Made by a program: the position numbers and the translations under genes
Shown here: positions 5,042 through 39,470 of the stretch, one piece after another
How the letters are laid out: each line of letters begins with the position of its first letter
How positions within the stretch are numbered: position 1 is the stretch's first letter
The notes under the pieces: generated by a model
What the model was told of the DNA's origin: nothing
What the model saw: the letters and a program-made list of their open reading frames with translations, nothing else
The model's database searches: none
DNA from: Patescibacteria group bacterium
Lineage (GTDB): Bacteria > Patescibacteriota > Minisyncoccia > Phycocordibacterales > PALSA-1337
Assembly (NCBI GenBank): GCA_018970245.1
Contig: JAGWWT010000003.1
Location: 3,519-67,518, forward strand
DNA: 64,000 bases
Direction: 5' to 3'

Positions 5042-5227
5042 TTACCAGGATGACTTCTTGATGCCCGGGATCATGCCCTCGTTGGCGAATTCCCTGAAAC
5101 ATATGCGGCACAGGTCGAAATCGCGCATATAGCCATGCTTGCGGCCACATCGGAAGCAGCGTCGAACCACGCGCGACTTGAACTTCGGCTTCTTCTGCGA
5201 ACGGGCTATGACTGATGTTTTGGCCAT
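5042..5227 (-). CDS. rpsZ: 30S ribosomal protein S14 type Z (zinc-binding, 61 aa)
   Basis: [61 protein letters not shown] carries a CxxC...CxxC zinc ribbon. It is the internal ATG of ORF 5042..5293. Confidence 0.9.
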
Positions 5228-5363
5228 ATTGCAGTGCCCTTCGGGCAATGAAAATCGATTGGTCAGCGCCGCCCTGACGGGTTTTGCTTCCAATCCTTCG
5301 TAAATACGTGGTATTTAGCGAGTGGTTAGGATGTTACCAGAATGCGTAAATTACGCAAGTACG

Positions 5364-5392
5364 TTGACTATCTAATAGATTAATGATATAAT
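5364..5392 (+). promoter_or_regulatory. sigma70-like promoter: TTGACT - 17 bp - TATAAT, about 65 bp upstream of the LDT/CPase gene
   Basis: Read directly: ttgact(5364-5369), atctaatagattaatga (17 bp), tataat(5387-5392). It lies in an AT-rich divergent intergenic region. Confidence 0.5.
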
Positions 5393-5456
5393 ACAAAACA
5401 CCTAGGGCGGTCTTCAAGGAAGCTATGGGATTGTCGTATAATGATATCGCATCGAA

Positions 5457-6905
5457 ATGGATTCTTCCTTTGACTGGAAAGGATTTGCTTTTACCCTAAA
5501 ATTCTCAGCCTTACTGGGAATGATGATGATAGGCTGGCACTTCGGATCCGAACGCGCGCTATCATATTTCAGTTCGCCAGCATCCCTCGAATCAACGGCT
5601 GAACGATTGGCACCGTCCTTTCCTATAGCATCAGCCCAAACGTATTCAAGCACAACGCCCGAACGCATCATAGAGCAGCTGACGATACCCGAAGCTATTC
5701 CTCGACACGGGAAATTCATAGTGGCCGACTTGAGCGGCATGGATCTGCTTCTGTATCAAGACGGTACGGAGAAAGCAGAATTCCCGATCCTCACCAAAGG
5801 CCGCCCTGGAAGCTTTTTTGAGACACCGACCGGTTTCTATTCGGTTTTATCGAAGAGCAAAAATCACTTTAACGCTGGAGAAGGCGTATACATGCCCTAC
5901 TCCATGCAATTTTATGGCAATTACTTCATCCACGGATGGCCATACTACCCTGGCGACAAGCCTGTCGCCTCTACGTATTCAGGCGGGTGCATACGATTAT
6001 CTACGGATGACGCTGCTAAAGTCTATGCGTTTGCCGATCAGGGCACCCCGGTCTTCGTCTATGATGCGTCCACGACCAGAGTCACAGAGCCATTGTCGAT
6101 CGGTAATGTCCCTGGGCCCTCAATCTCAGCAGCCGCTTATCTTATAGCCGATGTGGACACAGGCACGGTCTACCTTGAACATGACGCCGAAACGCCTCGT
6201 CCTATCGCCTCGCTCACAAAGCTCATGACAGCGCTGGTCGCCAATGAGACGATAATGTTCTACAAGAACATCGAAGTCACTAAGGGTGACCTCGATCATT
6301 CACCGGCCGCTGCTGATGCTCTAGGAGAGACTTTCACCGTAGGCGACCTCTTCTATCCATTGCTTATGGAATCAAACAACGCTATCGCGGACGATCTAGC
6401 CCGATATTATGGGACGAACGGCTTCGTGGCTTGGATGGACTCAACCGCGCGGTCTTTAGATATGTCTGAATCGCGCTTTGCTGATGCGAGCGGCGTCTCC
6501 CCGCAAGACGTGTCGACACCAGACGATCTGTTCCGGTTAGCGCGATACGAGATCGATCACAAGTCATTCATATTCAGAATATCGAAGACGCCGATCAAGT
6601 CGCTGACATCGCGACAAGGAGACAAGTTCGTATTCAACAACTTCAACCTCTTCTCTGGCGACCCTGATTTTATCGGAGGAAAAGTAGGTAAAACGGGACA
6701 AGCCGGGGAGACGATGCTTTCACTTTTCTCTGTCCCAGGACAGGAAGCGACGCACCGAGTAGCCATAATCATCCTCGATTCGAAGAATTATAGGACTGAT
6801 ACGCAAAAACTGCATGACTGGATCACATCTGCCGCCGCCTCAGCGCAAAGCAGCGCTGCGTGCGCAAGCTGCTCAGTAAAACAGTACCGCACGATCGATC
6901 CGTGA
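5457..6905 (+). CDS. bifunctional peptidoglycan enzyme: N-terminal L,D-transpeptidase (YkuD) domain fused to a serine-type D-Ala-D-Ala carboxypeptidase (PBP5/S11-like) domain; N-terminal TM anchor
   Basis: LDT catalytic region HGWPYYPGDKPVASTYSGGCIRL (His...Gly-Cys). DD-CPase motifs ASLTK (SxxK), ESNN (SxN) and GKTGQ (KTG). The gene is antisense to the flanking rp genes. Confidence 0.8.
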   Translation: MDSSFDWKGFAFTLKFSALLGMMMIGWHFGSERALSYFSSPASLESTAERLAPSFPIASAQTYSSTTPERIIEQLTIPEAIPRHGKFIVADLSGMDLLLYQDGTEKAEFPILTKGRPGSFFETPTGFYSVLSKSKNHFNAGEGVYMPYSMQFYGNYFIHGWPYYPGDKPVASTYSGGCIRLSTDDAAKVYAFADQGTPVFVYDASTTRVTEPLSIGNVPGPSISAAAYLIADVDTGTVYLEHDAETPRPIASLTKLMTALVANETIMFYKNIEVTKGDLDHSPAAADALGETFTVGDLFYPLLMESNNAIADDLARYYGTNGFVAWMDSTARSLDMSESRFADASGVSPQDVSTPDDLFRLARYEIDHKSFIFRISKTPIKSLTSRQGDKFVFNNFNLFSGDPDFIGGKVGKTGQAGETMLSLFSVPGQEATHRVAIIILDSKNYRTDTQKLHDWITSAAASAQSSAACASCSVKQYRTIDP

Positions 6906-6986
6906 TCCATCGCGAAATGGGATCGTCGCGACAGACGAAAAGCCGCGCTAGGCGGCTCTTGAATTCATTTCTCGCTTTTCAACCCG

Positions 6987-7562
6987 TTAATTCTTGTTTG
7001 CGTCGGCTTTCTTGAGCGGCAATCCCAAGTGCTCCAGGAAGGCCAGCGTAGCCGCCTTGTCGTGAGAGGTCGTAACGATCGTGATGGCGAGCCCGAATAC
7101 GTCCTTGAGGTCCTCATCCGACGTCTCCGGGAAGATCGTGTGCTCCTTTATGCCCAGAGTGTAGTTGCCCATCTCGTCCACCGAATCGCGCGAGAGCCCG
7201 CGGAAGTCCTTGGTGCGAGGCAGAGCGATATGTATGAGCTTGTCCAAGAATTCGTTCATGCGCTTGCCGCGGAGCGTGATCTGGTAGCCGATCGGGTCGC
7301 CGACGCGGGTCTTGAAAGTGGCGATAGCCTTTTTGGTGACGCGGACAGCGGGCTTCTGACCGGTGATCTTGGCCAAACGGTCGGCTATGAGGTCGATCTT
7401 GCGCTTGTCTTTGACGGACCCGAAACCGCTCGAGATCACGACCTTGACCAGTTTCGGTGCCTGCATGGGATTCTCCATGTTCAAAGGGGCTTTCAGTGCC
7501 GTGAATGAATCCTTATTGAGTTGGGCGGTTGTTTTGTATGCCATGATGGTTTGATGCGTCAT
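6987..7562 (-). CDS. rplE: 50S ribosomal protein L5
   Basis: 191 aa, L5 features (KLVKVVISSGFG..., TLRGKRMNEFLDKLIHIALPR). The start may instead be the ATG at 7544. Confidence 0.9.
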   Translation of the reverse strand: MTHQTIMAYKTTAQLNKDSFTALKAPLNMENPMQAPKLVKVVISSGFGSVKDKRKIDLIADRLAKITGQKPAVRVTKKAIATFKTRVGDPIGYQITLRGKRMNEFLDKLIHIALPRTKDFRGLSRDSVDEMGNYTLGIKEHTIFPETSDEDLKDVFGLAITIVTTSHDKAATLAFLEHLGLPLKKADANKN

Positions 7563-10669: not shown

Positions 10670-10887
10670 GGATGTTTTATTTCGATCCTGGATCTCAGCT
10701 AGATGCCTCTGCGAACAGCTGCGTTTCGTAGCCGGTCAGAATAAAAAAGTGGCTCAAATGAGCGTGGTGGCATGTTAACAGAGCCGTCATTTTAAGTCAA
10801 GGAATCGGCCGCCAGCCTCCATTCAAAGCCATGGCTGCTGGTCCGAGATTTGATGCTCTCCCCCATCGGCGCTATAATCATGCGGAA

Positions 10888-11721
10888 ATGAACTACGAAA
10901 TATTGCTCAACGGCCAGGGGATCGTCTCTGGCAACCTTGTCGGCACCGGAGCTATCGCCATCATATCTATCGCCGTCCTCATAGGCGCCATCGTCGCAGC
11001 AGGCCGCAGGATCATCCGGAAGCTGCGCGAGAATGACACGCTCAAATACGAGTTCATCACTATAATAGCCCACAAATTCAGGACTCCTCTCACCAGCACG
11101 AAATGGCTCCTTGAAGGCCAGATATCGGACGAGACAGACCATACGAAGAAGGAGAGCCTGATCGAGATGAAGAACAATACCGAGAACCTCATCTCCATGA
11201 CCGGAACGCTGATAGAGATGACGGATACTGATAACGAATCGAAGTCTTCCTATGAATTCGATAAGACAGACCTTTGCGACATCGTGAAGTCTGTAGCGGA
11301 TGCCCACAAGAGCATGTTCCACGAGAAGAACCTGTTCTTCTCTGTCAGGTGCGAAGCGGAAGGCGTCATAGTGAATGCCGACAAGCCCCGCCTGGAATTC
11401 GTCCTCCAAACTCTCATGGAAAATGCCAAATCATACACGCCGCCAGGTCGGAATGTCGAGGTCATCGTGGGCAAGAATGGCAGGTTCGGGACGGTCTCAG
11501 TGATCGACAGCGGCATAGGCATAGCGCCGCAGGACATGAGGCACATCTTCACCAAGTTCTACAGGACAAAAAACGCCCAGCAGATGGATACTGAGGGCTT
11601 CGGTGTCGGGCTTTTCTTGGCCCGATCGGTCATAAAGCGCCACAAGGGCCGACTAGAAGTCAGCTCGCCCGGAATAGACCAAGGCACGACTTTCACTCTT
11701 TCCCTGCCGCTGGCCAGATAA
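10888..11721 (+). CDS. sensor histidine kinase (HisKA + HATPase_c) with one N-terminal TM segment; orphan, no response regulator nearby
   Basis: H-box IIAHKFRTPL; ATP-binding lid DSGIGIAPQDMRHIFTKFYR...GFGVGL. Start placed at the ATG MNYEILL; the ORF extends to 10831. It is antisense to rpsS and rplB. Confidence 0.75.
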   Translation: MNYEILLNGQGIVSGNLVGTGAIAIISIAVLIGAIVAAGRRIIRKLRENDTLKYEFITIIAHKFRTPLTSTKWLLEGQISDETDHTKKESLIEMKNNTENLISMTGTLIEMTDTDNESKSSYEFDKTDLCDIVKSVADAHKSMFHEKNLFFSVRCEAEGVIVNADKPRLEFVLQTLMENAKSYTPPGRNVEVIVGKNGRFGTVSVIDSGIGIAPQDMRHIFTKFYRTKNAQQMDTEGFGVGLFLARSVIKRHKGRLEVSSPGIDQGTTFTLSLPLAR

Positions 11722-11872: not shown

Positions 11873-12727
11873 TTAGCTGGCTGCTCGCATGTTCTTGCCC
11901 GGCTCGCGTCTGGAGACGATGTAGACATTCGAATACTTCTTTGAGCGGCGAGTCTTCTGGCCCTTGCCGGCTGGCTTGCCCCAGCGCGTCTTCAAGCGTC
12001 TGAGACCGCGGCCTTGGCGCTGTTCGCCGCCGCCGTAAGGATGGTCGACAGGGTTCTGTGCCGTGCCGCGGACGGTCGGGCGGATGCCGAGCCAGCGTGA
12101 TCGGCCAGCCTTGCCGATGTGGACCAAGCGGTTCTCTTCGTTAGAAACGGCGCCTATGGAAGCCCAAGCGTCCTCATGGATCTTGCGGACCTCGGTCGAA
12201 GGCATCTTTATATGGGTGTAGCCGGCGTCATTGGCGATGACCTGAGCGAACGAGCCGGCCGAACGGACGAGCTTGGCGCCAGAGCCTGGTTTGACCTCGA
12301 TGTTGTAGACGAAGGTGCCGACCGGGATCTTCTTTAGCGGCAAACGGTTTCCGGTCTCGATAGGGGCGTTCTCGGACACGAGGAAGGAATTGCCGACCTT
12401 CATGGTCTTCGGCAGGAGGACATAGCGCTTGGTGCCGTCCTTGTAGTCGACGATGCCGACATAGCCGGTGCGGAACGGATCATATTCTACGGTCTTGACC
12501 GTGGCGACCATGTCTTTCTTGTCATACATGAAGTCGATCTCTCGATAGAGCTTCTTGTGGCCGGCGCCCTTGTGGCGAACGGTGACGCGGCCGTGAGCGT
12601 TGCGCCCGACATCGCGCTTGAAACCGTGAGTGAGCGGCTTGTACGGCTCCGAAGCGGTGACGTACTCCTTGAACGGGAGGACGGTCATGTGGCGGCGCGA
12701 TTTGGTATATGGTCGGTAGGATTTCAT
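11873..12727 (-). CDS. rplB: 50S ribosomal protein L2
   Basis: 284 aa, ...GRNAHGRVTVRHKGAGHKK..., GTAQNPVDHPYGGGEQRQGRG. Confidence 0.95.
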   Translation of the reverse strand: MKSYRPYTKSRRHMTVLPFKEYVTASEPYKPLTHGFKRDVGRNAHGRVTVRHKGAGHKKLYREIDFMYDKKDMVATVKTVEYDPFRTGYVGIVDYKDGTKRYVLLPKTMKVGNSFLVSENAPIETGNRLPLKKIPVGTFVYNIEVKPGSGAKLVRSAGSFAQVIANDAGYTHIKMPSTEVRKIHEDAWASIGAVSNEENRLVHIGKAGRSRWLGIRPTVRGTAQNPVDHPYGGGEQRQGRGLRRLKTRWGKPAGKGQKTRRSKKYSNVYIVSRREPGKNMRAAS

Positions 12728-12735
12728 GGAAATAT

Positions 12736-12764
12736 GGTTACAGGTTGCAAGTCGCAGGTTACAC
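12736..12764. repeat. heptad-array element, short locus B (rplW 3' end|rplB start), GTTNCAR units only
   Basis: ggttacaggttgcaagtcgcaggttacac. Overlaps the last codons and stop codon of rplW. Confidence 0.55.
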
Positions 12765-13214
12765 GAAGTCGATCTTTTCGCCAGCCTTCACGGTCACAAG
12801 CGCCTTGCGCATGCCCGCGACTGTCCCCTTCTTGCCTTTGACGAAGACGTTCTTCATGGGGGTGTTGATCATGGCCACCTTGACTGGGGTGACCTTGTAG
12901 ATGGCCTTTATGGCCTTGGCGACGCTGGCCTTGTTGGCGTCCTTGTTGACCTCGAACGTGTAGACGTTCGACTGCGAAAGAAGGCCGGATTTCTCAGTCA
13001 CGCGCGGCCGGATGACCACCGAGGCGGCAACGGTCTCTTCTACGACCTTGAGCTTCGGGACGGCAACAGCCTTGGTCTTGGATCCGGACTGGACGGCTGC
13101 CTTCTGCTTCTTGGCGCCCTTGGCCGGCGACTTCTTATCGGCGACAGCCTTGGCCGCCTCGGCGCCCTGCTCGAGCTTCTCGTCTTTGCGCTTTTTGAAA
13201 CCGAATATGGCCAT
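12759..13214 (-). CDS. rplW: 50S ribosomal protein L23 with Lys/Ala-rich N-terminal extension
   Basis: C-terminal region ...NVYTFEVNKDANKASVAKAIKAIYKVTPVKVAMIN matches L23. Confidence 0.85.
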   Translation of the reverse strand: MAIFGFKKRKDEKLEQGAEAAKAVADKKSPAKGAKKQKAAVQSGSKTKAVAVPKLKVVEETVAASVVIRPRVTEKSGLLSQSNVYTFEVNKDANKASVAKAIKAIYKVTPVKVAMINTPMKNVFVKGKKGTVAGMRKALVTVKAGEKIDFV

Positions 13215-13219
13215 GGCGG

Positions 13220-13879
13220 TTATTTCTTGGCGGTCAGAGCTTTTAGAGACTCTGCCGGATTGGCGACTATGAGGAACGTATGGTTCAGCACTGAAACGGG
13301 ATTGATGTTCCTGAATTCCTCGACGGCGACGTTCCCGAAATTGCGGAAGCTCTTCTCGACGGCCGCAGCCTTCTTGTCCAGGGCGATGATGGCGGCATTG
13401 GCCTTCTTCGTGCCCAACCTCTCATAGCCCTTTATCTTGGACAGAGAATCGAGGACGCCCTTGGCTTCCTTGGCTTTCGGCGCTTCGAACTTCACTGAAT
13501 CAAGGAATAGGATCTCGCCATCCTTGTACTTTTTAGAAAGGATCGTGAAAAGGGCCTTGGATTTGGCTTTGCGGTTGATCTTTCTGGAATAGTTCTTCTC
13601 GTTGCGAGGACCGTGCGCGACGCCGCCGCCGACCCAGATCGGCGAACGCGTCGAACCGTGGCGGGCGCGGCCTGTTCCCTTCTGCTTCCAAGGCTTCCTG
13701 CCGCCGCCGCGGACCTCACCGCGGGTCTTGGTATGGGCAACGGGCGTCCTAGAGTTTGAGTTCATGAGCCGCACGATCTCATGTACGAGATCGGCATTCC
13801 AAGGAACGTTGAAAATATCCTCGGGAAGAGAGATCTTGCCGGCTGATTTGCCCTGCTGGTTATAGACGGTCGCTTCCAT
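13220..13879 (-). CDS. rplD: 50S ribosomal protein L4
   Basis: METAVYNQQGK...KPWKQKGTGRARHGS. Start placed at the internal ATG; the ORF extends to 13924. Confidence 0.9.
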   Translation of the reverse strand: MEATVYNQQGKSAGKISLPEDIFNVPWNADLVHEIVRLMNSNSRTPVAHTKTRGEVRGGGRKPWKQKGTGRARHGSTRSPIWVGGGVAHGPRNEKNYSRKINRKAKSKALFTILSKKYKDGEILFLDSVKFEAPKAKEAKGVLDSLSKIKGYERLGTKKANAAIIALDKKAAAVEKSFRNFGNVAVEEFRNINPVSVLNHTFLIVANPAESLKALTAKK

Positions 13880-13957
13880 GGTCTCTGGATAAATAAAATA
13901 GGCTCTGTCGAGCGCGGAATGCATCTTAACAGAGCCGTCTTTTTAAGTCAACGGCTG

Positions 13958-15846: not shown

Positions 15847-15862
15847 CCGCCTAATTCTAGCA

Positions 15863-30513: not shown

Positions 30514-33500
30514 TCAATGGCAGTAGATACCGAGGAGCTTGCAGGCATTGATCGCGTTCTCGATCTGCTGCACGAGGCTGCTATTGCCGACGCTCGCGGT
30601 CTGATTGGCGCCGGAACAATCGTAACCGACCGGACAAGTCAGGCCGTCATAAGAGACCGGGCTGGCCATAGGCGAGGGCGAAGCGGTCGCCGTAGGCACT
30701 GGGTTCACCGTGAAGTTGATCCACTTGGTTACCGTGCCGCCGTAGCTAGGAGCCACGCCAAGCTGGTAGGTGCCGGTCTGCATATGGCTCATGAAGAAGC
30801 TGTTGATCGTGAATGTGAGCTGAGTCGGGCTGACTGACGACAGGCTGGCGCCGCCCAGGCCGCTCACGATGCCGTTATTCATGAACTCGACATAGTCAGT
30901 CGAAGCGAAGCCTGTACCGGTGACCGTCACCGTCGTTCCCAGAGTGCCGCTCGTCGGCCATACCGAAGAGATGACGGGCTGGACTGGTTGGGCCGGTTGG
31001 GTGGGTTGGACAGGAACCGGAGCTGTCATACAAGTATAGCCTGGTGGGCAATTCACATATACCGGCGTACACGTGTAGCCTGACGGGCAGGTATACGTAG
31101 CGCCTGGCGGCGTACAAATATAGCCTGTCGGACAAACGACTGTCGTCGGCTGATCCGTCTTCGGGACGGGGGTCGGAGAGGCGTAAGTGTACGGTGCGGC
31201 ATTAGCGAACATTATCGACCCTGTGTAGACATTTCCAGTATTTCCTTCCGAGGTCCCGACAATTGGGTAGATAATGACAGTTTTTATCGACTCTGGCCCT
31301 GGATAGCTAAATGTGAAGGCTGACGGTACTGTCACAGTTGTTTGCTGGCCAGCACCCAAAGACTGAACCGTTACTGTTAAGCCGTTGAGGTCAACTTGGA
31401 ACGGAGTGGTCCAATCTGTCGAGCCTGTATTTTTGACTGTAACAATCCCTGAGACCCATTGATTTACCTGAGGTTTCTCGGGTGAGAACTGCACATTTGT
31501 TATTACAATGGGCTGATTTGAGTCGGTGCTACCATTCCCGCTCGGCGAATACTGCGAAGCCGGGATGTTGCCGACGACGCGCGTGCCGTCGGTGAAGTTC
31601 ACGACGACGATGCCGCCGTAGAAGTGACCCGTTTCGACGTGGCCGTAGAGATTGAATCCGACTTTGCCAGGACCGTAGGTGCCTAGAGTCTGGTTGTATG
31701 CCGTATTGAGCTGTGCAGGATTCACCCCATCGGACAACACGACAAGCGGGAATGAGCTGCGGCCAAGATCGTCAGGTGAGGCCGTAGTCCAGCCTTCAGG
31801 ATTCGTCGCCGGGTTCGGTGCGCCGGCACCGGTATGATACACAGCGATCGACTTGATAGTTTTAGTCGAGTTCAAGCTCAAAGATATCCACCAATGCCAG
31901 TTATTCGTTGTTTGATCATTCACCCCGGAACCAGCAGTGAATACGCCCCAGCTTCCTGCATGGCCTGTGAAATCAGAGGCTGATTGCGCGACTAATGTGG
32001 ACCCGTCAGTCACCGTAGAAGCAAGGCTGGAGATCGTGCTCACGCCAGAGCTGCCTCCTCCATTAGAACCGCCGTTCTGCGTACAAGACCAACCGGCAGG
32101 GCAGACGAATCCTCCGCCTCCCGAGCTGCTACCAGACGAAGTGACTCCAGAACCGCTAGAACCGCTGCCGCTGCTTGTAAGATTAGCGTTGCACGAAGCC
32201 ATCACCGAAGCCCTGGTTAGTGAGCCGAAGTAACCCGTATGAGGCAATCCGACCGATTGCTGGTACAGGGCTAGAGCCGCAGCTGTCTGATAACCGTAAT
32301 AGCCCTTAGCTAGGCCACTCTCCAGAGCGGTGATCGTAAAGCCATTGTTCATGAGCCAAGTCTGCAAAGCTGCGACATCGTCGCCGTTCGAACCGATCGT
32401 AAGGTCTCGAGTAAAGACATAGCAATTACCGGTGCTGCCACCTCCACCTCCTCCACTGCTCGATGAGCTGAAGGAAAACACATTGTCGTTATATGGCGCA
32501 ATAAACTTTGTAGTACCGGGTTCAACAAAGTATATCTTGTATTGGCCCGTGTATGACGCAACCCGGCTAGTGATATCTGCTGGGATCGCCCATGTATAGT
32601 GGCCTTGAGCCAAGGAGATGTTGCTGGCAATTTCCGCCGTGTAATTCGCTGTCTGCGCTTCTGCCTTATGAAGGCCGAGGACGGTATCGAATGCGTCTGC
32701 AAAGATATTCTTGCTCGGTGCAAGTCCACAACCCATTGGATCACAACCGCTACTCGTAAAACCCTCAAGGAGGATATCGGCCGTAGGATGCGCTGCTAAC
32801 GTAGCAGGCGTCGCCGACCACTGAATCGTATACATGCTTCCTACCGGGATGACTGCACCAGCCGCTGGGGCGATCAGGTGTAGATTTGCGGCAGTCGATC
32901 CATACCCCGCATTCGATGTCGCCCAGTTATCTTCATTCACAAACGTGGGGATCGTATTTCCGGGGCTCAACCAGTCCACCCCATTCAAACGGACTCCATA
33001 CACATCAGTACCGAGAACCGGAACAACGAATCTCAACGTTACCGGTATCGTCACGGTCTGATTTTGAGCTATCGTGAATGACGTACCATCGCTAGAAAGC
33101 GCCGTGCCAGGAGGCTGGATGTAAGAGACGGTTGGCGAATAGTTCACGGAGCTATCAACTGCCACACCATTCTTATATATCACCCACGAGCCAAGATTAG
33201 AGCCGTATGCAGGAAACGCAGGTGTTTTTGAGCTGGGAAGGCCAAGAATAATCGGTGAGCCATCGGCCGTTACCTGAACATTGAATGTCACTACAAAAGT
33301 TGCAGCTGTCCCTCCGACAGTCACACTTTCACTTATTGTAGGAGTCCCGCTCAAGCTGAACACCGGACCTTGGCCGACTACCGTGATCTTGTTGCCAGAA
33401 GCGGATCCTTGGACCGTCACATTAGCGCTTGCGCCAGACGCAGACATAACAGTGACACCAGAGGCTACCACGCTGGCAGAGACCGAAAAGCCAGGCCCAG

Positions 33501-33978
33501 AACCGACGTTGGTGATGTCGGCTTTGACCATAAACGGAACCGTCGCATTAACCGGGATAACGGCTTGATTGCTGAGGCTCGTGAAGGTTGCAACGCCATT
33601 CTGGACCGAAGCTGAACCTAGCAACTGCGAGCCTTGATAGAGATAGGCCGCCCCGATGCTTCCAGAGCTACCGCCGATCGGCGAAGTGATATTTACCTTG
33701 ACTGTATTAAGGGCAAGATCGCCGCCTTGAGCTCTCACATCGAAGACAAGGACTGGCAAGCCTAGATACTGGCCAGTAGCCGTATTCGTGACCGCCACAG
33801 TCGAGGTCAACGGCGAAGACGGATCGAGCGAGATATTGGCGTTTAACGGCGATGGTGTGGACGAAGGCGATATCACCAAGGCGTTGGCTGACGGCGTCGA
33901 AATGACGCTGAGAACCAGCGCGCCAACGACGATAGCCGCGCCGAGAACGGAGCTGATAAAAAGAGAACGATTTTTCAT
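30514..33978 (-). CDS. giant (about 1155-aa) secreted surface protein with internal PG-binding domain, Gly/Ser linkers, repeated CPxGYxCT Cys motifs and a C-terminal IPT/TIG-like domain
   Basis: PGB GSNGDDVAALQTWLMNNGF...YGYQTAAALALYQQSVGLPHTGYFGSLTRASV; linkers SSSSSGGGGGGS; VVCPTGYICT, YTCPSGYTCT, VNCPPGYTCM; TIG-like ISSVWPTSGTLGTTVTVTGTGF. Start at ATG 33978 (MKNRSLFISS signal peptide); the ORF extends to 34104. Confidence 0.8.
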   Translation of the reverse strand: MKNRSLFISSVLGAAIVVGALVLSVISTPSANALVISPSSTPSPLNANISLDPSSPLTSTVAVTNTATGQYLGLPVLVFDVRAQGGDLALNTVKVNITSPIGGSSGSIGAAYLYQGSQLLGSASVQNGVATFTSLSNQAVIPVNATVPFMVKADITNVGSGPGFSVSASVVASGVTVMSASGASANVTVQGSASGNKITVVGQGPVFSLSGTPTISESVTVGGTAATFVVTFNVQVTADGSPIILGLPSSKTPAFPAYGSNLGSWVIYKNGVAVDSSVNYSPTVSYIQPPGTALSSDGTSFTIAQNQTVTIPVTLRFVVPVLGTDVYGVRLNGVDWLSPGNTIPTFVNEDNWATSNAGYGSTAANLHLIAPAAGAVIPVGSMYTIQWSATPATLAAHPTADILLEGFTSSGCDPMGCGLAPSKNIFADAFDTVLGLHKAEAQTANYTAEIASNISLAQGHYTWAIPADITSRVASYTGQYKIYFVEPGTTKFIAPYNDNVFSFSSSSSGGGGGGSTGNCYVFTRDLTIGSNGDDVAALQTWLMNNGFTITALESGLAKGYYGYQTAAALALYQQSVGLPHTGYFGSLTRASVMASCNANLTSSGSGSSGSGVTSSGSSSGGGGFVCPAGWSCTQNGGSNGGGSSGVSTISSLASTVTDGSTLVAQSASDFTGHAGSWGVFTAGSGVNDQTTNNWHWWISLSLNSTKTIKSIAVYHTGAGAPNPATNPEGWTTASPDDLGRSSFPLVVLSDGVNPAQLNTAYNQTLGTYGPGKVGFNLYGHVETGHFYGGIVVVNFTDGTRVVGNIPASQYSPSGNGSTDSNQPIVITNVQFSPEKPQVNQWVSGIVTVKNTGSTDWTTPFQVDLNGLTVTVQSLGAGQQTTVTVPSAFTFSYPGPESIKTVIIYPIVGTSEGNTGNVYTGSIMFANAAPYTYASPTPVPKTDQPTTVVCPTGYICTPPGATYTCPSGYTCTPVYVNCPPGYTCMTAPVPVQPTQPAQPVQPVISSVWPTSGTLGTTVTVTGTGFASTDYVEFMNNGIVSGLGGASLSSVSPTQLTFTINSFFMSHMQTGTYQLGVAPSYGGTVTKWINFTVNPVPTATASPSPMASPVSYDGLTCPVGYDCSGANQTASVGNSSLVQQIENAINACKLLGIYCH

Positions 33979-34048
33979 TGTTATTATATTAATAGTAATA
34001 ATAAAGTCGCCTATTGCTGGCCCAAGTCTAGCACCGCCGGACGAATAG

Positions 34049-34081
34049 CAAAACAGCCGATATCCACAGAGGATCGGCTGT
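34049..34081 (-). terminator. rho-independent terminator after fusA
   Basis: 9-bp stem ACAGCCGAU/AUCGGCUGU with an 11-nt loop, followed on the minus strand by UUUUGCUAUUC. Confidence 0.6.
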
Positions 34082-34110
34082 TGCATCCAATGGTCTTCCC
34101 GCAATGACGG

Positions 34111-36270
34111 CTATTTCCTCTTCTCCTTGATCTCTTCGGCGACGTTGGCCGGAACGACTTCGTAGTGATCGAACTCCATCTGGGCCGATCCTTGGCCTGA
34201 AGTCATCGAACGCAGCTGAGTCGTATATCCGAACATCTCGGCCAGCGGAACCTTGGCTAGGATGGCCACATTCTGGCCCTTCGTATTCTGGCCTTCTATG
34301 AGGCCGCGCTTCGAGGCTATCGAGCCGTTGATATCGCCGATATACTTCTCCGGCGCGACGACTTCTAGCTTCATGATCGGCTCAAGGATGACCGGCTTGG
34401 CGCGCTTGGCAGCATCCTGAAAGGCCTGCGAAGCGGCGATCTTATAGGCGATCTCCGACGAGTCCACATCGTGATACGAACCGAAAGTGAGCTCGCAGGA
34501 TACGTTGACCATCTTGTAGCCGGCGACGATGCCGCGATCCATGGCTTCATGGACGCCTTTTTCGACGGCCGGAATGAATTCATTCGGGATGACGCCACCC
34601 TTGATGGAGTCGATGAACTCGAAATCGTCGTAGCGGTGCACGTTCTTCGGGATCTTCTTCGGCTTGCCGTCATCATCGGTCGGCAACGGTTCCATAGGCT
34701 TCAGAGTGATGCGGACATGTCCGTACTGGCCCTTGCCGCCGGTCTGCTTGATGTATTTATTCTCGGCCTCGGCTGTGCCCATGATCGTCTCGCGGTAGGC
34801 TACCTGCGGCTCGCCCGTATTGGCTTCGACGCTGAACTCTCGCTTCATGCGATCCACCATGATCTCCAGCTGGAGCTCGCCGACGCCGGCGATGATAGTC
34901 TCGCCCGTCTCAGGGTTGGAGCTGACGTGGAAGGTCGGGTCCTCGATAGTGAGCTTGCGCAAAGCCATGCCCATCTTTTCCTGGTCGGCCTTGGTCTTCG
35001 GCTCGATCCTGAGCGAAACGACCGGGTCCATGAATTTGATCTGCTCCAGGACGATCGGCTTGCTTTCGTCGCAGAAAGTGTCAGAAGTGAGGGTATCCTT
35101 GAGGCCGACCGCGGCTGCGATCTCTCCAGCGAAGACTTTCTTGACCTCTTCGCGCTTATCGGCCTGAAGGCGGACGATGCGGCCCAGACGCTCTTTCTTT
35201 TGAGTGCGAGAATTGTATATGTAGGTGCCGGCCTCGATGGTGCCAGAATAGACGCGGAAGAAGGTCAAAGCGCCGACGAACGGGTCATTCTGGAGCTTGA
35301 AAGCCATGGCGCAGAACGGCTCAGCATCGGAGGTATGCCGGATGACTTCCTCGCCCGTATTCGGATCGATGCCCTTGACTGGCGGTATGTCCAATGGGGA
35401 CGGCAGGTAATCCACGACCGCATCCAGGACCAGCTGCACGCCGATGTTCTTGAGCGCCGAACCGGTGAATACCGGGAAGATCTTGTTCGCGATGACGGCC
35501 TTGCGGGTGATCGCCTTGAGCTCGTCCATAGACGGCACTTTCCCTTCGAGATACGCCGTCATGGCGGCATCGTCGTGCTCGACTATCTTTTCGACCATCT
35601 CGTTGTGGTATTTCTTGGCTTCCTCGAGCATCTCGGCCGGGATCTCCTTCTCTATTATATTTATGCCCTTTTCGCCCTCGAAATAGTAGGCCTTCATGCG
35701 CATGAGGTCGATGACGCCCTTGTGCTCCCCTTCCAGGCCGATCGGCAGCTGGAAACGGACGGCGTTCTTGTTCAAACGATCCAGGATCGACTTGAATGAG
35801 CGCTCGAATGAGGCGCCCATGCGGTCCATCTTGTTGATGAAGCAGAGGCGGGGCACGTTGCCTTCATCCGCATAGCGCCAGTTAGTCTCGGACTGAGGCT
35901 CGACGCCGGCCACGCCGTCGAAGACGACGACCGCGCCATCGAGGACTCGGAGAGAGCGCTTGACTTCCACTGTGAAGTCGATATGGCCAGGAGTGTCGAT
36001 GACATTGAAACGGACCTTCTTCGAAGCGTCGGTCGCCGGCATGTATGTAGGATTCCAGAAGCAGGTGATGGCCGCAGCCGTGATGGTGATGCCGCGCTCG
36101 CGCTCCTGCTCCATCCAGTCCGTGACCGTGTCGCCCTCATGGACCTCGCCGATCTTGTGGATCATGCCGGTATAGTAGAGGATGCGCTCCGATGTGGTGG
36201 TCTTGCCTGCGTCGATGTGAGCGATGATGCCGAAGTTGCGGACGCGTTCGAGCGGATAGTCGCGGTTCAT
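34111..36270 (-). CDS. fusA: elongation factor G
   Basis: 719 aa, [23 protein letters not shown]; canonical. Confidence 0.98.
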
Positions 36271-36324
36271 GAGATTAAGTCTATGAAGTCTATAAAGTCC
36301 GTAAAGTCCTTGAAGTCCTTAAGG
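36271..36324 (-). repeat. GACTT heptad direct-repeat leader element, copy 3 (upstream of fusA)
   Basis: mRNA sense CCUUAAGGACUUCAAGGACUUUACGGACUUUAUAGACUUCAUAGACUUAAUCUC-AUG. Confidence 0.65.
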
Positions 36325-36390
36325 CGGACATTGAATAATAAAAAAGCCGGGGGCTTAGTGGCCTAACGATACAGGAAGTACCGGGAATAA

Positions 36391-36933
36391 TCAAATCTCA
36401 AATCCGATAGCATCATGCGTCGGAGTATTAAGCGTGATCAGCTTGTTAACAGCTGCATTTATATCTGCAAGATTCTTTCCTTGCTCCTTCATCCGCTTTT
36501 CTAAGGATCCGACTCTTTTCGCCAGATCCTTATTGGTCGCCAATAATTCTCGAAGCTTCACAAATGCCCTCATTATAAATATGTTCATTTGGATAGCGCG
36601 GTCGCTATTCAGAACGGATGAAAGCATCGCGACTCCAAGCTCAGTGAAAACATATGGTAAGTTCCTACGGCCACCTCTGCCGATCTTTGAGGTGCCAATT
36701 TGGTACCTCAAAGATTCACTCTCTTGAGCCGTCAACCTGAACGAGAAATCTGAAGGAAATCGATCTATATTTCTTTGAACTGCCCTGTTCAGAGTCTTGG
36801 TTTGAATCTGATACAGCTCCGCCAGATCGCTGTCCATCATCACTTTCTTTCCCCGGATAATATAAATCCTCCGTCCGATGAATTCGGGGGTAGCCGCTAA
36901 AACAAGACTCGTTTCTTTTGAGCCCGCATGCAT
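36391..36933 (-). CDS. ORF6N-domain (KilA-N-related, phage antirepressor-like) DNA-binding protein; AT-rich, probable mobile-element remnant
   Basis: IRGKKVMMDSDLAELYQIQTKTLNRAVQRNIDRFPSDFSFRLT...GRGGRRNLPYVFTELGVAMLSSVLNSDRAIQMNIFIMRAFVKLRE matches the ORF6N pattern. Confidence 0.6.
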   Translation of the reverse strand: MHAGSKETSLVLAATPEFIGRRIYIIRGKKVMMDSDLAELYQIQTKTLNRAVQRNIDRFPSDFSFRLTAQESESLRYQIGTSKIGRGGRRNLPYVFTELGVAMLSSVLNSDRAIQMNIFIMRAFVKLRELLATNKDLAKRVGSLEKRMKEQGKNLADINAAVNKLITLNTPTHDAIGFEI

Positions 36934-37269
36934 GCCAGAATTTTATCATAAAAGTTAAACCCGCATGAGGACATGCGGGTGGGTTAACAAGGAGGGAGCA
37001 AATGAGTGGTATGAGAGCAAAAAGAGCGAAGTGAGACAGTGATGGAAGCAGAAATGGTTGATTCGAAGAATATATGCGAGAGAGCTGTTAAGCGTTGAGA
37101 GCACCTGGGGGTTGGAAGTCAAATGAAGGCTCTCGCATACCCATTTCCGTTGTCCTATGTCTCTGTAAAAGATCAATCCTTCTTACGATATATATACGAC
37201 TCGAACATCATCGGTGGCGCAAGAACGGCGCAAAGGTAATATCCTATAAAGATCCTCGTCGATTTTAAT

Positions 37270-37530
37270 ATGGCCAGCCTGATACACGCGGACATATTCT
37301 TCTTCGTAACGACGGTCTGCGTGGTGCTGCTCACGGTTCTTTGCAGCATCCTGTTCATTTACCTGTTCCGCTTCTTGGCCACTCTGCGGGCGATCGCCGA
37401 CAAAGCGAAGAGCGAAGGCGACTTCATCCTCGACGAAGTCCACGAGCTCGTCCAGCGCATCGAAAGACGGCGGTTCGGATTCAGGGCGTTGTTCAGATTC
37501 TTCAGACGCATCGTACAGCGATATTATTAG
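37270..37530 (+). CDS. hypothetical small membrane protein
   Basis: One TM helix (IFFFVTTVCVVLLTVLCSILFIYLF) then a basic tail. Co-directional with two downstream ORFs; antisense ORFs exist, so confidence is low. Confidence 0.3.
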   Translation: MASLIHADIFFFVTTVCVVLLTVLCSILFIYLFRFLATLRAIADKAKSEGDFILDEVHELVQRIERRRFGFRALFRFFRRIVQRYY

Positions 37531-37548
37531 CCGAAATAGCACAAAATC

Positions 37549-37926
37549 ATGTTCAGAAACCGATATCACCAGCATGGGCCTCCGCGATTGGTAGTAGGTC
37601 TGGTCGCAGCTTCAGTGGGAGCGGCAGCCAGCTACTTCCTCTTCGGAACCGAGACAGGCGCAGAAAAGCGCGCTAAGGCCAAAGAATGGCTCGCCGACAT
37701 GAAGGATAGCGCCACGAGCGCTTCCGGGACTTTGAGCGAGCTCGCATCCGTTGGAAAAGAGATGACTAAGGATATGGCCTCTTTGATAAAGGATCGCTAT
37801 AGCGAGCTCAAAGACCTGGATAAAGACGAGGTATCCGACCTCGCCGACCGTTTGCGCGCCCACTGGGCCGAAGCGCTTACCGAGATGAAAGGCATCCTGG
37901 ATGAAGCCGGAGATGATGAGGGTTGA
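37549..37926 (+). CDS. hypothetical protein, TM anchor + acidic coiled-coil (YtxH/DUF948-like)
   Basis: LVVGLVAASVGAAASYFLF then Lys/Glu/Asp-rich helical sequence. Confidence 0.4.
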   Translation: MFRNRYHQHGPPRLVVGLVAASVGAAASYFLFGTETGAEKRAKAKEWLADMKDSATSASGTLSELASVGKEMTKDMASLIKDRYSELKDLDKDEVSDLADRLRAHWAEALTEMKGILDEAGDDEG

Positions 37927-37967
37927 CAAATAGCCAGCTAAGATTAGCCTGAAGGTGGGATCTTTCT

Positions 37968-38348
37968 ATGAAACATATCGTCACCCTGTATGGAAAGCCG
38001 GGGCTAGTAGCAGATATGCGCGGTCATGAGATGTGGGTGTCCACCCCGGAAGCCGCCAAGCTCGGCTTGCCTGAGAAGCGATTCAACGGCATCATCGTCG
38101 AGCCTTCTTCCGGACAATTCCATCCTGTCCGCTGCGCCTTAGTCATAAAAGAAGGCTATTCGGACGAATTCGAGGTCGAAGGCGTGATCGATGCCGATCT
38201 GGCGATGGCGATCTGGAAAGGCAAGCGCCTGAAGTTCACCGCCGTCGGGCAAAATGGCCACCGAGAGCCGCTTGCGCATTTCGGCAGCAAGTCATGCCCT
38301 ACCGAATACGAGCTCTGCTTCACATTCGAGTTCGCCGACCATGGATGA
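37968..38348 (+). CDS. hypothetical protein
   Basis: 126 aa; I recognise no motifs. Confidence 0.35.
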   Translation: MKHIVTLYGKPGLVADMRGHEMWVSTPEAAKLGLPEKRFNGIIVEPSSGQFHPVRCALVIKEGYSDEFEVEGVIDADLAMAIWKGKRLKFTAVGQNGHREPLAHFGSKSCPTEYELCFTFEFADHG

Positions 38349-38424
38349 CCTCCTCTCATGCGCAAAGCGCGACCTAAACGGCCGCGCCTTTTTATCTGCA
38401 TGATCCGCGCTGTTCGCGCCTGTC

Positions 38425-38895
38425 TTACCAGGCGAAGTGGGCAAAAGCCTTGTTGGCTTCAGCCATCTTATGGACGTTCTCGCGCTTCTTTACAGCCTCG
38501 CCTTCGTTCTTGGAAGCGGCGATGATCTCCTCCGCAAGCTTCACAGCTATCGGCTTGCCTTTCTTTGAACGAGCAGCCTCGATGATCCATTTCATGGACA
38601 GCGCCTGCTTGCGTTCCGGACGGACCTCGCGGGGCACTTGGTAGTTGGCGCCTCCGACTCGGCGGGAGCGGACTTCCATGGCCGGCATCGTATTCTTGAG
38701 CGCTTCCTCGAAGACATTCAGGGGATTTTCGACTTTAGCCTGCTCTTTTATGGCCGACATGCAGTCGGAGACTATCCTTCTGGCGATATTCTTCTTGCCT
38801 GATTCCATCACGTAATTCGTGAACTTGGCGAGCTTCAGCGACTGATAGGTCATATCCGGCCGCAATTCCCTTTTGATGTTTATTTTCCTTCGCAT
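38425..38895 (-). CDS. rpsG: 30S ribosomal protein S7
   Basis: 156 aa, MRRKINIKRELRPD... Confidence 0.93.
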   Translation of the reverse strand: MRRKINIKRELRPDMTYQSLKLAKFTNYVMESGKKNIARRIVSDCMSAIKEQAKVENPLNVFEEALKNTMPAMEVRSRRVGGANYQVPREVRPERKQALSMKWIIEAARSKKGKPIAVKLAEEIIAASKNEGEAVKKRENVHKMAEANKAFAHFAW

Positions 38896-38904
38896 GAGAT
38901 TGAT

Positions 38905-38976
38905 GGTTACAAGTTCCAGGTTACAAGTTGCAAGTTACAGGTGAAGATTGTGACCTGTTACTTGTTGCTTGTTACC
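38905..38976. repeat. heptad-array palindromic element, locus E (rpsL 3' end|rpsG start)
   Basis: ggttacaagttccaggttacaagttgcaagttacaggtgaagattgtgacctgttacttgttgcttgttacc. The YTGNAAC arm encodes the rpsL C-terminal codons. Confidence 0.75.
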
Positions 38977-39380
38977 TTGGGCTTTTTGTTCCCGTATTGG
39001 CTGCGACCTTTCCTACGAGCTTCGACGCCGGCGCAATCCAAGACGCCGCGGACGACTGAATAGCGGAGGCCGACATCCTTGACGCGGCCGCCGCGCAAGA
39101 GGACGACAGAGTGCTCCTGCAGATTGTGGCCCATGCCTGGGATATAAGCGGTTACTTCCATACCGTTCGTGAGGCGGACGCGGGCGATCTTGCGGATGGC
39201 TGAGTTCGGCTTCTTCGGGGTCTTAGTGGTGACCTTCACGCAGACGCCGCGCTTGAACGGAGCCGGAAAGAATATCGGGCGGTTCTTGATCGAGTTGAAA
39301 GTGCGCGTCAAAGCGACGGACTTTGACTTCCGCTTGAAGCGCTTCCGGCTAGATTTTATAAGTTGATTTACGGTAGGCAT
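38958..39380 (-). CDS. rpsL: 30S ribosomal protein S12
   Basis: [13 protein letters not shown]...[20 protein letters not shown] at 39380; the ORF extends to 39404. Confidence 0.95.
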
Positions 39381-39470
39381 TGTGATTACAAGTGACAGTA
39401 GCAAGTGACAGGGTTACAAGTTACAGGTGACAAGTTGCATTTTTTACCTGCTACCTGTGACCTGCTACTT
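39381..39470. repeat. heptad-array palindromic element, locus F (largest, about 90 bp; immediately upstream of the rpsL ATG)
   Basis: tgtgattacaagtgacagtagcaagtgacagggttacaagttacaggtgacaagttgcattttttacctgctacctgtgacctgctactt. Confidence 0.75.

Follow-up and report, generated by a model that had tools for sequence, protein, structure and literature searches.

The str-S10-spc cluster of ribosomal protein (r-protein) genes is a standard example of conserved gene order and the backbone of concatenated-marker phylogenies for uncultured bacteria, and in the locus described here it is broken at five positions. The locus lies on a stretch of 64,000 nucleotides (the window; positions 3,519 to 67,518 of contig JAGWWT010000003.1, assembly GCA_018970245.1) and carries 27 translation genes, all on the minus strand and in the canonical order from rpsL to map, each identified by an NCBIfam equivalog model. 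The original prediction of this order, and of five interruptions and their sizes, was borne out (Table 1): the short-spacer contiguity of the str, S10 and spc units is interrupted by five gaps (1.2-11.2 kb), of which two contain antisense genes, while the remaining r-protein junctions of the window measure at most 62 bp each. The interruptions had been taken for five independent and unusual insertions of foreign DNA, which was not confirmed, since relatives are broken at the same five junctions. It is quite probable that fission has divided the superoperon into modules with promoters of their own, the borders of which act as long-lived insertion sites, and that the breaks are mostly old and lineage-wide.

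For the comparison with related species, one genome per species of the Genome Taxonomy Database (GTDB) was scanned with the L2 protein of the window. The 80 loci obtained, from Ca. Taylorbacteria/Paceibacteria with an L2 identity of 80-91%, include flanks of at most 10 kb per side, contig permitting. The window proteins were mapped onto these loci by tblastn and 25 consecutive junctions were scored, the denominators being the loci that cover a given junction. The order was colinear in 80/80 loci, with zero non-colinear cases. Gaps of more than 400 bp occurred at rpsG/fusA (3/7 loci), fusA/tuf (14/15), rplC/rplD (11/61), rplB/rpsS (47/56) and rplE/rpsZ (12/17), and fusA/tuf is broken in 47/48 once the count includes loci in which 1.5 kb or more precedes tuf and fusA is absent from it. 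Elsewhere such gaps were found at rplP/rpmC (3/49), tuf/rpsJ (2/53, both under 800 bp), rplD/rplW (1/74, 438 bp) and secY/adk (1/5, 1489 bp), and at none of the other 16 junctions. Gaps exceeding 1 kb are confined to the five junctions of the window, rplP/rpmC (the same three loci) and secY/adk (the single locus).

Four more distant relatives (74-76% identity in L2) are still interrupted at fusA/tuf and rplE/rpsZ, while rplB/rpsS is tight in them (50-117 bp). A surface protein is encoded directly upstream of tuf in L083 (faint Kre9_KNH match) and L086 (PG_binding_1 and a faint Kre9_KNH match), other genes stand there in L084, and no fusA was found there in L085. After rplE, the distant relatives have an antisense ORF6N gene or a ParA-like gene, and L085 is fully disconnected at this point; in the clade, the DNA between rplE and rpsZ amounts to 0.6-4.7 kb of unrelated genes. 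Ranked by distribution, the breaks at fusA/tuf and rplE/rpsZ are the oldest and that at rplB/rpsS is intermediate, while rpsG/fusA is patchy and rplC/rplD confined to a subclade. The original prediction had allowed that the same interruptions might be ancestral in the lineage, and this is largely what the synteny of 80 relatives reveals.

The module borders carry promoter-like elements, which are found inside the classical str, S10 and spc units. A 31-nt element, TTGACTTAAAA[A/T]GACGGCTCTGTTAA[G/C]ATGC, is present in exactly two copies in the window against 0 expected, one upstream of rplD and the other upstream of rpsS; it consists of a -35 box TTGACT, a 17-nt spacer and a TG-extended -10 box and is of sigma-70 type. 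The rplD promoter and leader together form a paralog, of about 60 nt, of the rpsS element (local alignment score 57 vs 18.9 +/- 2.1 for shuffles). Further promoter-like sites precede tuf and rpsZ as well as two antisense genes, and the sites of rpsS and of the antisense kinase stand back to back (Table 1). The generalised motif TTGACT (at most one mismatch)-N13-16-TGnTAnnAT, with a sense-strand background of 1.02 per 10 kb, was scored in the 200 nt upstream of each gene in all loci. It was detected upstream of rpsS in 56/57 loci, rpsZ in 12/18, tuf in 17/52, rplD in 13/70 and rpmC in 2/50, and the upstream regions of the 21 other genes were free of it. Within the window the strict motif matches the rplD and rpsS sites, those of tuf and rpsZ being weaker.

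The motif tracks the insertions. Upstream of rplD it was present in 8/15 loci with a broken rplC/rplD junction vs 2/50 without (p = 4.5e-5), and the corresponding values were 12/13 vs 0/4 for rpsZ (p = 0.002) and 2/3 vs 0/46 for rpmC (p = 0.003). The rpsS motif also occurs in 9/9 genomes that have no insertion there (spacers 83-282 bp) and in 3/4 distant relatives (spacers 50-117 bp), where it lies 9-22 nt from the start codon. Since it is found throughout the sampled clade, also in every sampled genome of it lacking the rplB/rpsS insert, the data fit, though they do not prove, an rpsS promoter that pre-dates the insertion of the kinase and of the MacAB-type cassette.

Several of these elements are followed by conserved leaders. 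In the rpsS leader, and in those of rplD and rpmC when these genes are split off, a 4-6 bp GCUC/GAGC hairpin and a U tract come directly after the -10 box, and this hairpin leader may serve as an attenuator or as a 5' stabiliser. The tuf leader (about 27508-27427, minus strand) has two boxes common to relatives, CGGGCGTTTTAT and CTATTAACAATTTATC, as well as a large hairpin. The rpsZ leader of the window (5295-5257, minus strand) reads GAUUGGAAGC-hairpin-GCUGACCAAUC with a U tract, and its general form, GAUUGGAAGC-variable hairpin-AGCUAACCAAUC with a U tract, is shared by 20 loci of relatives and the window (for example, L004:17720-17758, L072:18999-19037 and L086:15843-15887). Its outer stems are invariant, and an inner hairpin was predicted in 19/20 despite differing sequences when these were folded singly (mean z -2.9); RNAalifold on a MAFFT alignment, in which the variable inner hairpin was misaligned, recovered the invariant outer stems only and no covariation. 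A scan of the whole window against Rfam at the gathering threshold gave no match, and the rpsZ, rpsS and tuf leaders match no family. The rpsZ leader is a candidate autoregulatory r-protein leader, and to name S8 or S14, for example, as its binder would be speculation.

The GCUC-loop-GAGC hairpin lies at 10740-10769 and 13892-13920 (minus strand) in the window and, with variants of the stem, in the rpsS upstream regions of about 50 loci. Predicted -10 boxes stand about 9-10 nt before the start codon of the kinase gene of the window (10850-10888) and of rpsS in two relatives (L083:10940-10969, L086:10950-10980), which suggests that leaderless or near-leaderless mRNAs may occur in the clade. A perfect 21-bp tandem repeat, GCGCGGTTTTCGCAAGGTCGA x2.7 (13958-14013), abuts the -35 box of the rplD promoter between rplD and the Fur/HTH gene and may be an operator array.

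At the downstream ends, elements composed of a hairpin and a U tract follow rpsG, the ORF6N gene, fusA, rplC and rplE in the window. The hairpins predicted after fusA and rplC both exist by direct folding (Table 1), but a stricter terminator scan of the window did not list them, its counts being at shuffle level. The hairpin after rpsG (about 38390-38364) is located between this gene and a convergent open reading frame (ORF), with a T-run on the plus strand and a weaker tail on the minus strand; the terminator-like site after ORF6N is at 36356-36344. Among relatives, a separate strict scan recovered terminator-like sites after rplE in 35% and after fusA in 31% vs about 7% expected, a moderate enrichment. 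The hairpins after rpsG, fusA, rplC and rplE, together with the promoter-like elements before tuf, rplD, rpsS and rpsZ, give the fragments the appearance of separate transcription units, as had been proposed.

Table 1. Modules, genes, inserts and promoter-like sites of the window, in the direction of transcription of the r-protein genes. INS, insert; GC3, GC content at third codon positions
Feature	Position	Strand	Remarks
Module 1, rpsL-rpsG	38425..39380	-	NCBIfam
rpsL	38958-39380	-	NCBIfam TIGR00981
rpsG	38425-38895	-	NCBIfam TIGR01029
INS1, gap rpsG/fusA	36271..38424	mixed	2154 bp
INS1 hypothetical protein	37968-38348	+	126 aa
INS1 YtxH-like protein	37549-37926	+	Pfam YtxH 3.2e-5, under Pfam cut-off
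INS1 ORF6N DNA-binding protein	36391-36933	-	Pfam ORF6N 1.1e-31; GC 44.6%, z -5.8, atypical
Module 2, fusA alone	34111..36270	-	then hairpin (10-bp stem, ~34082-34052) and U tract
fusA	34111-36270	-	TIGR00484, 1025 bits
INS2, gap fusA/tuf	27414..34110	-	6697 bp; three co-oriented cell-surface proteins
INS2 surface protein, 1154/1196 aa	30514-33978/34104	-	Pfam PG_binding_1, Kre9_KNH; GC3 z -3.3, atypical, low-complexity sequence possibly responsible
INS2 protein, 227 aa	29630-30313	-	
INS2 surface protein, 614 aa	27606-29450	-	Pfam PG_binding_1, PKD
Module 3, promoter-like site, tuf leader, tuf-rpsJ-rplC	25103..27565	-	then hairpin (~25073-25050) and U tract
tuf promoter-like site	~27565-27537	-	TTGCGC-17-TGcTACCAT
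tuf	26226-27413	-	NCBIfam
rpsJ	25763-26164	-	NCBIfam
rplC	25103-25708	-	NCBIfam
INS3, gap rplC/rplD	13925..25102	mixed	11178 bp; MacAB-type efflux cassette split by nested genes
INS3 HlyD adaptor	23490-25013		Pfam HlyD_D23/HlyD_3
INS3 nest A, GH130 fragment	23023-23283		Pfam
INS3 nest A, putative antitoxin	22678-22977		99-aa ORF; GC 44.0%, atypical
INS3 nest A, ParE/RelE toxin	22417-22674		Pfam ParE_toxin 7.3e-7, above cut-off; GC 45.7%, atypical
INS3 nest A, Ser-hydrolase	21799-22404		GC 48.2%, atypical
INS3 ABC ATPase	21062-21802		Pfam ABC_tran
INS3 nest B, SIMPL	20312-21043		
INS3 nest B, DapB-like	19539-20261	+	
INS3 nest B, MFS (MFS1)	18356-19516	+	
INS3 nest B, HAD	17711-18310		GC 39.2%, atypical
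INS3 nest B, YbaK	17166-17708		GC 47.9%, atypical
INS3 nest B, second MFS (MFS2)	15863-17164		GC 47.2%, atypical
INS3 MacB/FtsX permease	14605-15846		Pfam MacB_PCD 2.7e-42 and FtsX
INS3 Fur/HTH regulator	14244-14684	+	divergent, adjoins rplD; GC3 z -4.4, atypical
Module 4, rplD-rplW-rplB	11873..14013	-	21-bp x2.7 repeat, promoter and leader (13951-13892) upstream
rplD promoter-like site, 31 nt	13951-13921	-	
rplD	13220-13879/13924	-	NCBIfam
rplW	12759-13214	-	NCBIfam
rplB	11873-12727	-	NCBIfam
INS4, gap rplB/rpsS			1203 bp
INS4 sensor histidine kinase	10831..11721	+	antisense
Kinase promoter-like site	10850-10878	+	ends 10 nt before ATG 10888
Module 5, rpsS-rplV-rpsC-rplP-rpmC-rpsQ-rplN-rplX-rplE	6935..10800	-	then hairpin and U tract (~6960-6935)
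rpsS promoter-like site, 31 nt	10800-10770	-	TTGACT-17-TGtTAACAT
rpsS	10319-10669	-	NCBIfam; then rplV, rpsC, rplP
rpmC	8503-8688	-	NCBIfam; then rpsQ, rplN
rplX	7559-7777	-	NCBIfam
rplE	6987-7562	-	NCBIfam
INS5, gap rplE/rpsZ			1759 bp
INS5 YkuD L,D-transpeptidase and Peptidase_S11 DD-peptidase fusion	5457..6905	+	antisense; Pfam YkuD 4.4e-17, Peptidase_S11 2e-25; GC 51.1%, GC3 z -3.7, tetranucleotide z +3.8, atypical
Fusion gene promoter-like site, strong	5364-5392	+	11/12 matches plus TG
Module 6, rpsZ-rpsH-rplF-rplR-rpsE-rplO-secY-adk	210..5358	-	promoter-like site and structured leader; map off window
rpsZ promoter-like site	~5358-5331	-	TTGCGT-17-TGgTAACAT
rpsZ (type-Z)	5042-5227	-	NCBIfam; then rpsH, rplF, rplR, rpsE, rplO, secY, adk
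rpsE	3052-3699	-	NCBIfam
rplO	2561-3022	-	NCBIfam
adk	210-about 800	-	NCBIfam
map N-terminus	1-207	-	continues beyond window edge

Among the contents of the inserts, INS3 holds a MacAB-type tripartite efflux set: an HlyD-family adaptor, an ABC ATPase and a permease in which MacB_PCD and FtsX domains were recognised. The set is split by two nests of other genes. In nest A, the 99-aa ORF ends 4 bp before the ParE/RelE toxin gene and has no significant match to an antitoxin family in Pfam. The antisense histidine kinase predicted at rplB/rpsS was confirmed by Pfam and NCBIfam. Its start is likely at 10888, giving a protein of 277 aa with one predicted transmembrane helix directly followed by a HisKA-HATPase core, and this core matches many NCBIfam kinase families at about 1e-38, all under the equivalog cut-offs. 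The kinase appears to be an orphan, because none of the window ORFs scanned gave a match to Response_reg. The antisense L,D-transpeptidase predicted at rplE/rpsZ does contain a YkuD domain but is actually a fusion of YkuD with Peptidase_S11.

Base composition had been used to argue that AT-rich inserts were acquired horizontally against a background of about 60% GC. The reference coding GC is 57.3 +/- 2.2% (GC3, 73.8 +/- 4.9%) and does not agree with that background; the whole inserts have 50.0% (INS1), 55.0% (INS2), 52.5% (INS3, a mosaic), 52.5% (INS4) and 50.2% (INS5). An atypical composition was found for a part of the inserted genes, namely ORF6N, the putative toxin-antitoxin pair with the Ser-hydrolase, HAD-YbaK-MFS2, the Fur-like gene and the transpeptidase-peptidase fusion, but not for the kinase, the MacAB core (HlyD, ABC ATPase and permease), SIMPL, DapB-like, MFS1 and the 614-aa surface protein, which are native-like, as is the 227-aa protein. 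The tetranucleotide distance of the kinase and of each cassette gene falls within the null distribution, while nest A (GC 0.469) and the MFS1-HAD-YbaK-MFS2 stretch (GC 0.484) reach z +6.4 and +9.9, respectively. The AT-rich signal marks recent cargo layered on old breaks, including a nested invasion of the MacAB operon, and only the nested or terminal pieces listed first look recently acquired.

In the relatives, 565 ORFs located in gaps were clustered; 258 remained singletons, and recurrent families were few. Of the 50 members of the kinase family, 44 lie at rplB/rpsS and 48 are antisense, and their sequences have diverged to 42-53% identity. In many relatives the kinase is absent or other genes separate it from rpsS, and in about 10 it adjoins an FtsX-type ABC transporter. 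MacAB genes were found in 17-19 loci, at rplC/rplD in 7 loci and the window and otherwise at rplB/rpsS; the ABC and permease proteins of the window are 67-83% identical to those of 18-19 relatives irrespective of the junction, and most relatives have the three cassette genes side by side or almost so. Homologs of the 614-aa surface protein are encoded directly upstream of tuf in 13 relatives, an extracytoplasmic function (ECF) sigma factor at rplE/rpsZ in 9 loci, and a YtxH homolog at rpsG/fusA also in L042, while no homolog of the transpeptidase-peptidase fusion was found at rplE/rpsZ in relatives. Other recurrent occupants are a PIF1-like helicase, OmpR-type response regulators, an Orn/DAP decarboxylase and an aminotransferase; gyrA and alanine racemase (alr) were seen upstream of tuf by sequence inspection only. 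Kinase excluded, 303 inserted genes run in the direction of the r-protein genes and 80 against it (79% co-oriented). Because the gaps hold housekeeping genes (gyrA, alr, a lysA-like gene and an aminotransferase, among others) as well as accessory ones, this mix points to general rearrangement at permissive sites and not to the integration of islands.

The gene map and its recurrence in relatives were observed directly, as were the promoter motif distribution, the conservation of leaders and the composition; we infer that the motifs fire as promoters and that the cluster was remodelled in several steps. It would now consist of some six colinear modules, at least four of which (those of tuf, rplD, rpsS and rpsZ) have their own promoter-like element and conserved leader. 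Since each module could be expressed alone, the borders would tolerate intervening DNA, and genes may accumulate, turn over and move there over a long time. The breaks at fusA/tuf and rplE/rpsZ would be the oldest, the internal rpsS promoter probably being old too; the antisense orphan kinase and the MacAB-type cassette would then have entered rplB/rpsS. In the sub-lineage of the window, the cassette would have come to rplC/rplD, and the rplD block would have received a second version of the promoter and leader of rpsS. A tandem duplication of the segment from rplD to the rpsS promoter, followed by reciprocal loss, might be the simplest route and would explain both the shift of the cassette from rplB/rpsS to rplC/rplD and the duplicated promoter and leader before rplD; a search upstream of the -35 box found no homology, so a longer duplicated segment is neither supported nor excluded. 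The AT-rich additions would be recent: ORF6N at rpsG/fusA, the fusion gene at rplE/rpsZ, and the toxin-antitoxin pair with the hydrolase and the HAD-YbaK-MFS stretch nested in the cassette.

A number of observations weigh against this reconstruction. The promoters and terminators considered here are matches to consensus sequences; the tuf and rpsZ sites of the window match well only in the extended -10 box, their -35 boxes agreeing in 3/6 positions, and no motif was found upstream of fusA (0/11) or rpsL (0/6). The stretch 11722-11872, between rplB and the convergent kinase gene, contains no canonical terminator, and read-through is possible. The homology between the rplD and rpsS upstream regions begins exactly at the -35 box, no remnant of the kinase was found upstream of rplD, and the HlyD protein of the window is nearer to those of rplB/rpsS cassettes (60-64% identity) than to those of rplC/rplD cassettes (49-51%). 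A neighbour-joining tree with bootstrap, built on partial data, placed the window weakly (38% bootstrap), so that the rplC/rplD events may number one or two and the duplication-loss route is tentative. The relatives are metagenome-assembled genomes (MAGs), and single contigs may be erroneous; the pattern nonetheless repeats across many studies.

The source of the window is evidently a MAG too, and the inserts differ in GC, as would be expected if r-protein fragments had been chimerically joined to unrelated contigs during assembly or binning. This explanation is effectively refuted and its probability close to nil. In two further NCBI assemblies (GCA_028865675.1, GCA_028866085.1), colinear stretches of 12.7 and 10.5 kb share 98.6-98.7% of their nucleotides with the window, and the two are, for this reason, independent assemblies of the same species; the EF-Tu sequence of the window was found identical on contigs of both. 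Their contigs span four joins (ORF6N/fusA, fusA/surface protein, surface protein/tuf and rplC/HlyD) and much of INS3, so misassembly at the junctions, a possibility raised with the original prediction, is not indicated. Moreover, the same junction classes recur in MAGs of many independent studies, on contigs of up to 0.7 Mb, and promoter and leader elements are positioned precisely at the joins. Five independent recent insertions of genomic islands into a canonical superoperon of this genome are very unlikely as well and, for the breaks themselves, largely refuted: every one of the five junctions is broken in relatives (two even in the distant ones), a conserved position and native composition are shared by the kinase, the MacAB core and the 614-aa surface protein, and the gaps of relatives hold housekeeping genes too. 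No integrase, recombinase or transposase was present among the Pfam matches of the insert ORFs scanned or of the rest of the window; a tRNA scan detected no tRNA genes in the window and hence no tRNA-linked integration, and a tandem-repeat scan gave only short intergenic repeats, no search dedicated to flanking direct repeats having been made. Island insertion survives only for the nested AT-rich cargo. In its favour are the strong AT-richness and tetranucleotide deviation of ORF6N, antitoxin, ParE, Ser-hydrolase, HAD, YbaK, MFS2 and the L,D-transpeptidase fusion, the typically mobile character of the toxin-antitoxin pair and the ORF6N protein, and the many insert genes of the window that have no homolog at the junctions of relatives.

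Two further explanations assign a function to the arrangement. It is possible, though unlikely, that r-protein modules harbour envelope and sensing genes by regulatory design, the expression of these genes being coupled to the growth rate; the genes in question are those of the PG-binding surface proteins, the transpeptidase-peptidase fusion, the MacAB cassette and the orphan kinase. An excludon is a long antisense transcript spanning a divergently oriented gene; in an excludon-like manner, an unterminated rplB transcript would run antisense through the kinase gene into rpsS and repress the kinase at high ribosome synthesis. The geometry is similar, with the kinase antisense between two co-oriented blocks and no obvious terminator after the upstream block, and the back-to-back promoter-like sites of rpsS and the kinase would suit it; unlike in an excludon, rpsS has its own promoter-like element and read-through would not be needed for its expression. 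This explanation is favoured by the retention of the kinase in antisense at one junction in 44 species despite its divergence, by the co-orientation of most inserted genes and by the synteny of the 614-aa surface protein with tuf across the clade, but the other gap content is highly heterogeneous (258 singletons among 565 ORFs), the co-orientation is perhaps just a replication-strand bias, and in many relatives the kinase is missing or separated from rpsS by other genes. A related and similarly doubtful possibility is that a family-level clade of Paceibacteria has rebuilt the cluster into promoter-leader modules in which the leaders are new regulatory RNAs and the kinase is part of an excludon-like circuit. 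In that case, the rpsZ leader could be an autoregulatory site of the rpsZ-rpsH unit that has been relocated (for S8, for example), and the rpsS/rplD hairpin and U-tract leader could be an attenuator. Through the orphan kinase, which over 40 species keep in antisense between rplB and rpsS, envelope sensing would be coupled inversely to the synthesis of ribosomes.

Fission into promoted modules, the reading preferred here, has counterparts in other bacteria. The str operon of Escherichia coli has a secondary internal tufA promoter, by which tuf can be transcribed independently of rpsL-rpsG-fusA. The tuf module described here is likewise independently transcribable in appearance, making fusA/tuf a natural point of fission, with the difference that conserved promoter-like elements are also found before rpsS, rpsZ and sometimes rplD and rpmC. 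No description of internal S10 or spc promoters or of r-protein cluster fragmentation in the Candidate Phyla Radiation (CPR) was found in the literature searched. For Gammaproteobacteria and Bacilli, 163 alterations of the cluster were reconstructed by Brandis 2021 (PMC8046335), and 65% of 115 rearrangements lay between operons and left these intact, by an 'invasion-separation' process in which duplications are involved. As in that process (Brandis 2021, PMC8046335; also 2019, PMC6735719), a few genes are inserted here between units of translation genes with colinearity kept, units may later be fully disconnected (here in L085), intrachromosomal duplication is implicated and the alterations are concentrated in a lineage. 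However, all breaks found here lie inside the str, S10 and spc operons as defined in E. coli and not at the borders between operons, and they coincide with predicted clade-specific internal promoters; the classical borders stay tight (in the window, 61 bp at tuf/rpsJ and 5 bp at rpsQ/rplN; in relatives, medians of 70 and 21 bp). Fission here follows a known evolutionary process, with the intra-operon position of the breaks and the clade-specific internal promoters as the differences. Within the spc operon, in-situ gene replacement has a known hotspot at S14 (rpsN/rpsZ; event F81, PMC8046335), so that the rplE/rpsN position is labile in other bacteria too; such replacement swaps the coding sequence and leaves the operon unbroken, whereas here rplE/rpsZ is filled with genes and rpsZ has gained a predicted promoter and a structured leader.

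A CPR family that breaks the cluster at fixed intra-operon positions matters wherever 'syntenic r-protein blocks' are used for quality control of binning or for marker extraction in Patescibacteria. The breaks track predicted internal promoters and that of rpsS is present even where no insert exists, which fits operon fission in which the promoter comes first and insertion later. Such a route adds to the 'invasion-separation' model, for which Proteobacteria and Bacilli were the basis. Transcription and the regulation of r-protein synthesis are almost uncharacterised in these organisms, and the analysis supplies a promoter consensus and three conserved leaders as candidate regulatory elements.

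A different likeness was considered for the kinase. In Bce-type modules, an intramembrane-sensing kinase is combined with an FtsX-family ABC transporter, and the minimal-sensor kinase beside an ABC transporter with an FtsX-type permease in some relatives resembles these. Unlike in Bce-type modules, one transmembrane helix is predicted instead of two, no response regulator is adjacent, the transporter is of MacB type with an HlyD adaptor and not BceAB, and the kinase and transporter genes are convergent, with rplD-rplW-rplB between them in the window. A Bce-like coupling of the kinase and MacAB was set aside in view of the missing response regulator, the single helix and the MacB/HlyD type of the transporter.

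Some occupants of the borders deserve separate mention. ORF6N genes recur at module borders: in relatives they are antisense at rplE/rpsZ (L079:14565-15092, L083:14651-15184, L084:14434-14970), and that of the window, which is strongly AT-rich, is in sense orientation at rpsG/fusA; ORF6N may be a small mobile gene preferring such borders. Reverse-transcriptase ORFs (RVT_1) were found in rplE/rpsZ or rplB/rpsS gaps of three relatives (L007:18481-19491, L018:8679-9680, L060:12528-13595), and terminator-targeting group II introns could be one entry route for DNA into the borders; the window has no reverse-transcriptase gene. The 86-aa ORF at 23023-23283 matches only the C-terminal end of GH130 (profile positions 249-317 of 320) and is a gene fragment between the HlyD gene and the toxin-antitoxin pair, present in L002 too. 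The Ser-hydrolase is nested between HlyD and the ATPase in L073 as well, where the cassette stands at rplB/rpsS.

The rpsE and rplO genes are 29 bp apart with no uL30 (L30) gene between them, and the missing L30 gene is a hallmark of CPR/Patescibacteria (PMC9297842). The nearest L2 homologs (80-92% identity) belong to MAGs labelled Ca. Taylorbacteria, Paceibacterota or Parcubacteria, and the organism of the window is a Patescibacteria/CPR bacterium related to Ca. Taylorbacteria (Paceibacteria). The remainder of the window (39.6-64 kb) encodes type IV pilus genes, ComEC, RecJ, PGK/TIM, NusA, RNase R and H+-PPase, which are regarded as typical CPR core functions, and has no genes of mobile elements.

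Three r-proteins, S10 (rpsJ), L23 (rplW) and S5 (rpsE), carry N-terminal Lys/Ala-rich extensions of about 30-65 residues beyond the family profiles, the matches of which begin at residues 35, 64 and 65, respectively. Many r-protein spacers are filled with short tandem repeats (7781-7833, 9873-9921, 36277-36322, 38905-38939, 39402-39436, 9137-9166, 25716-25740, 3021-3060 and 4611-4642), among them AAGTCCATA, repeated five times just upstream of fusA (36277-36322). A 24-nt unit, AGTCGAAAGTCTATAAAGTCATAA, is common to the rplN/rplX and rplV/rpsC spacers, and the heptamers GTTACAA, GTTACAG and AGGTTAC occur in rpsL/rpsG, rpsC/rplP and rpsJ/rplC as well as upstream of rpsL. These repeats may be translation-initiation or spacer elements.

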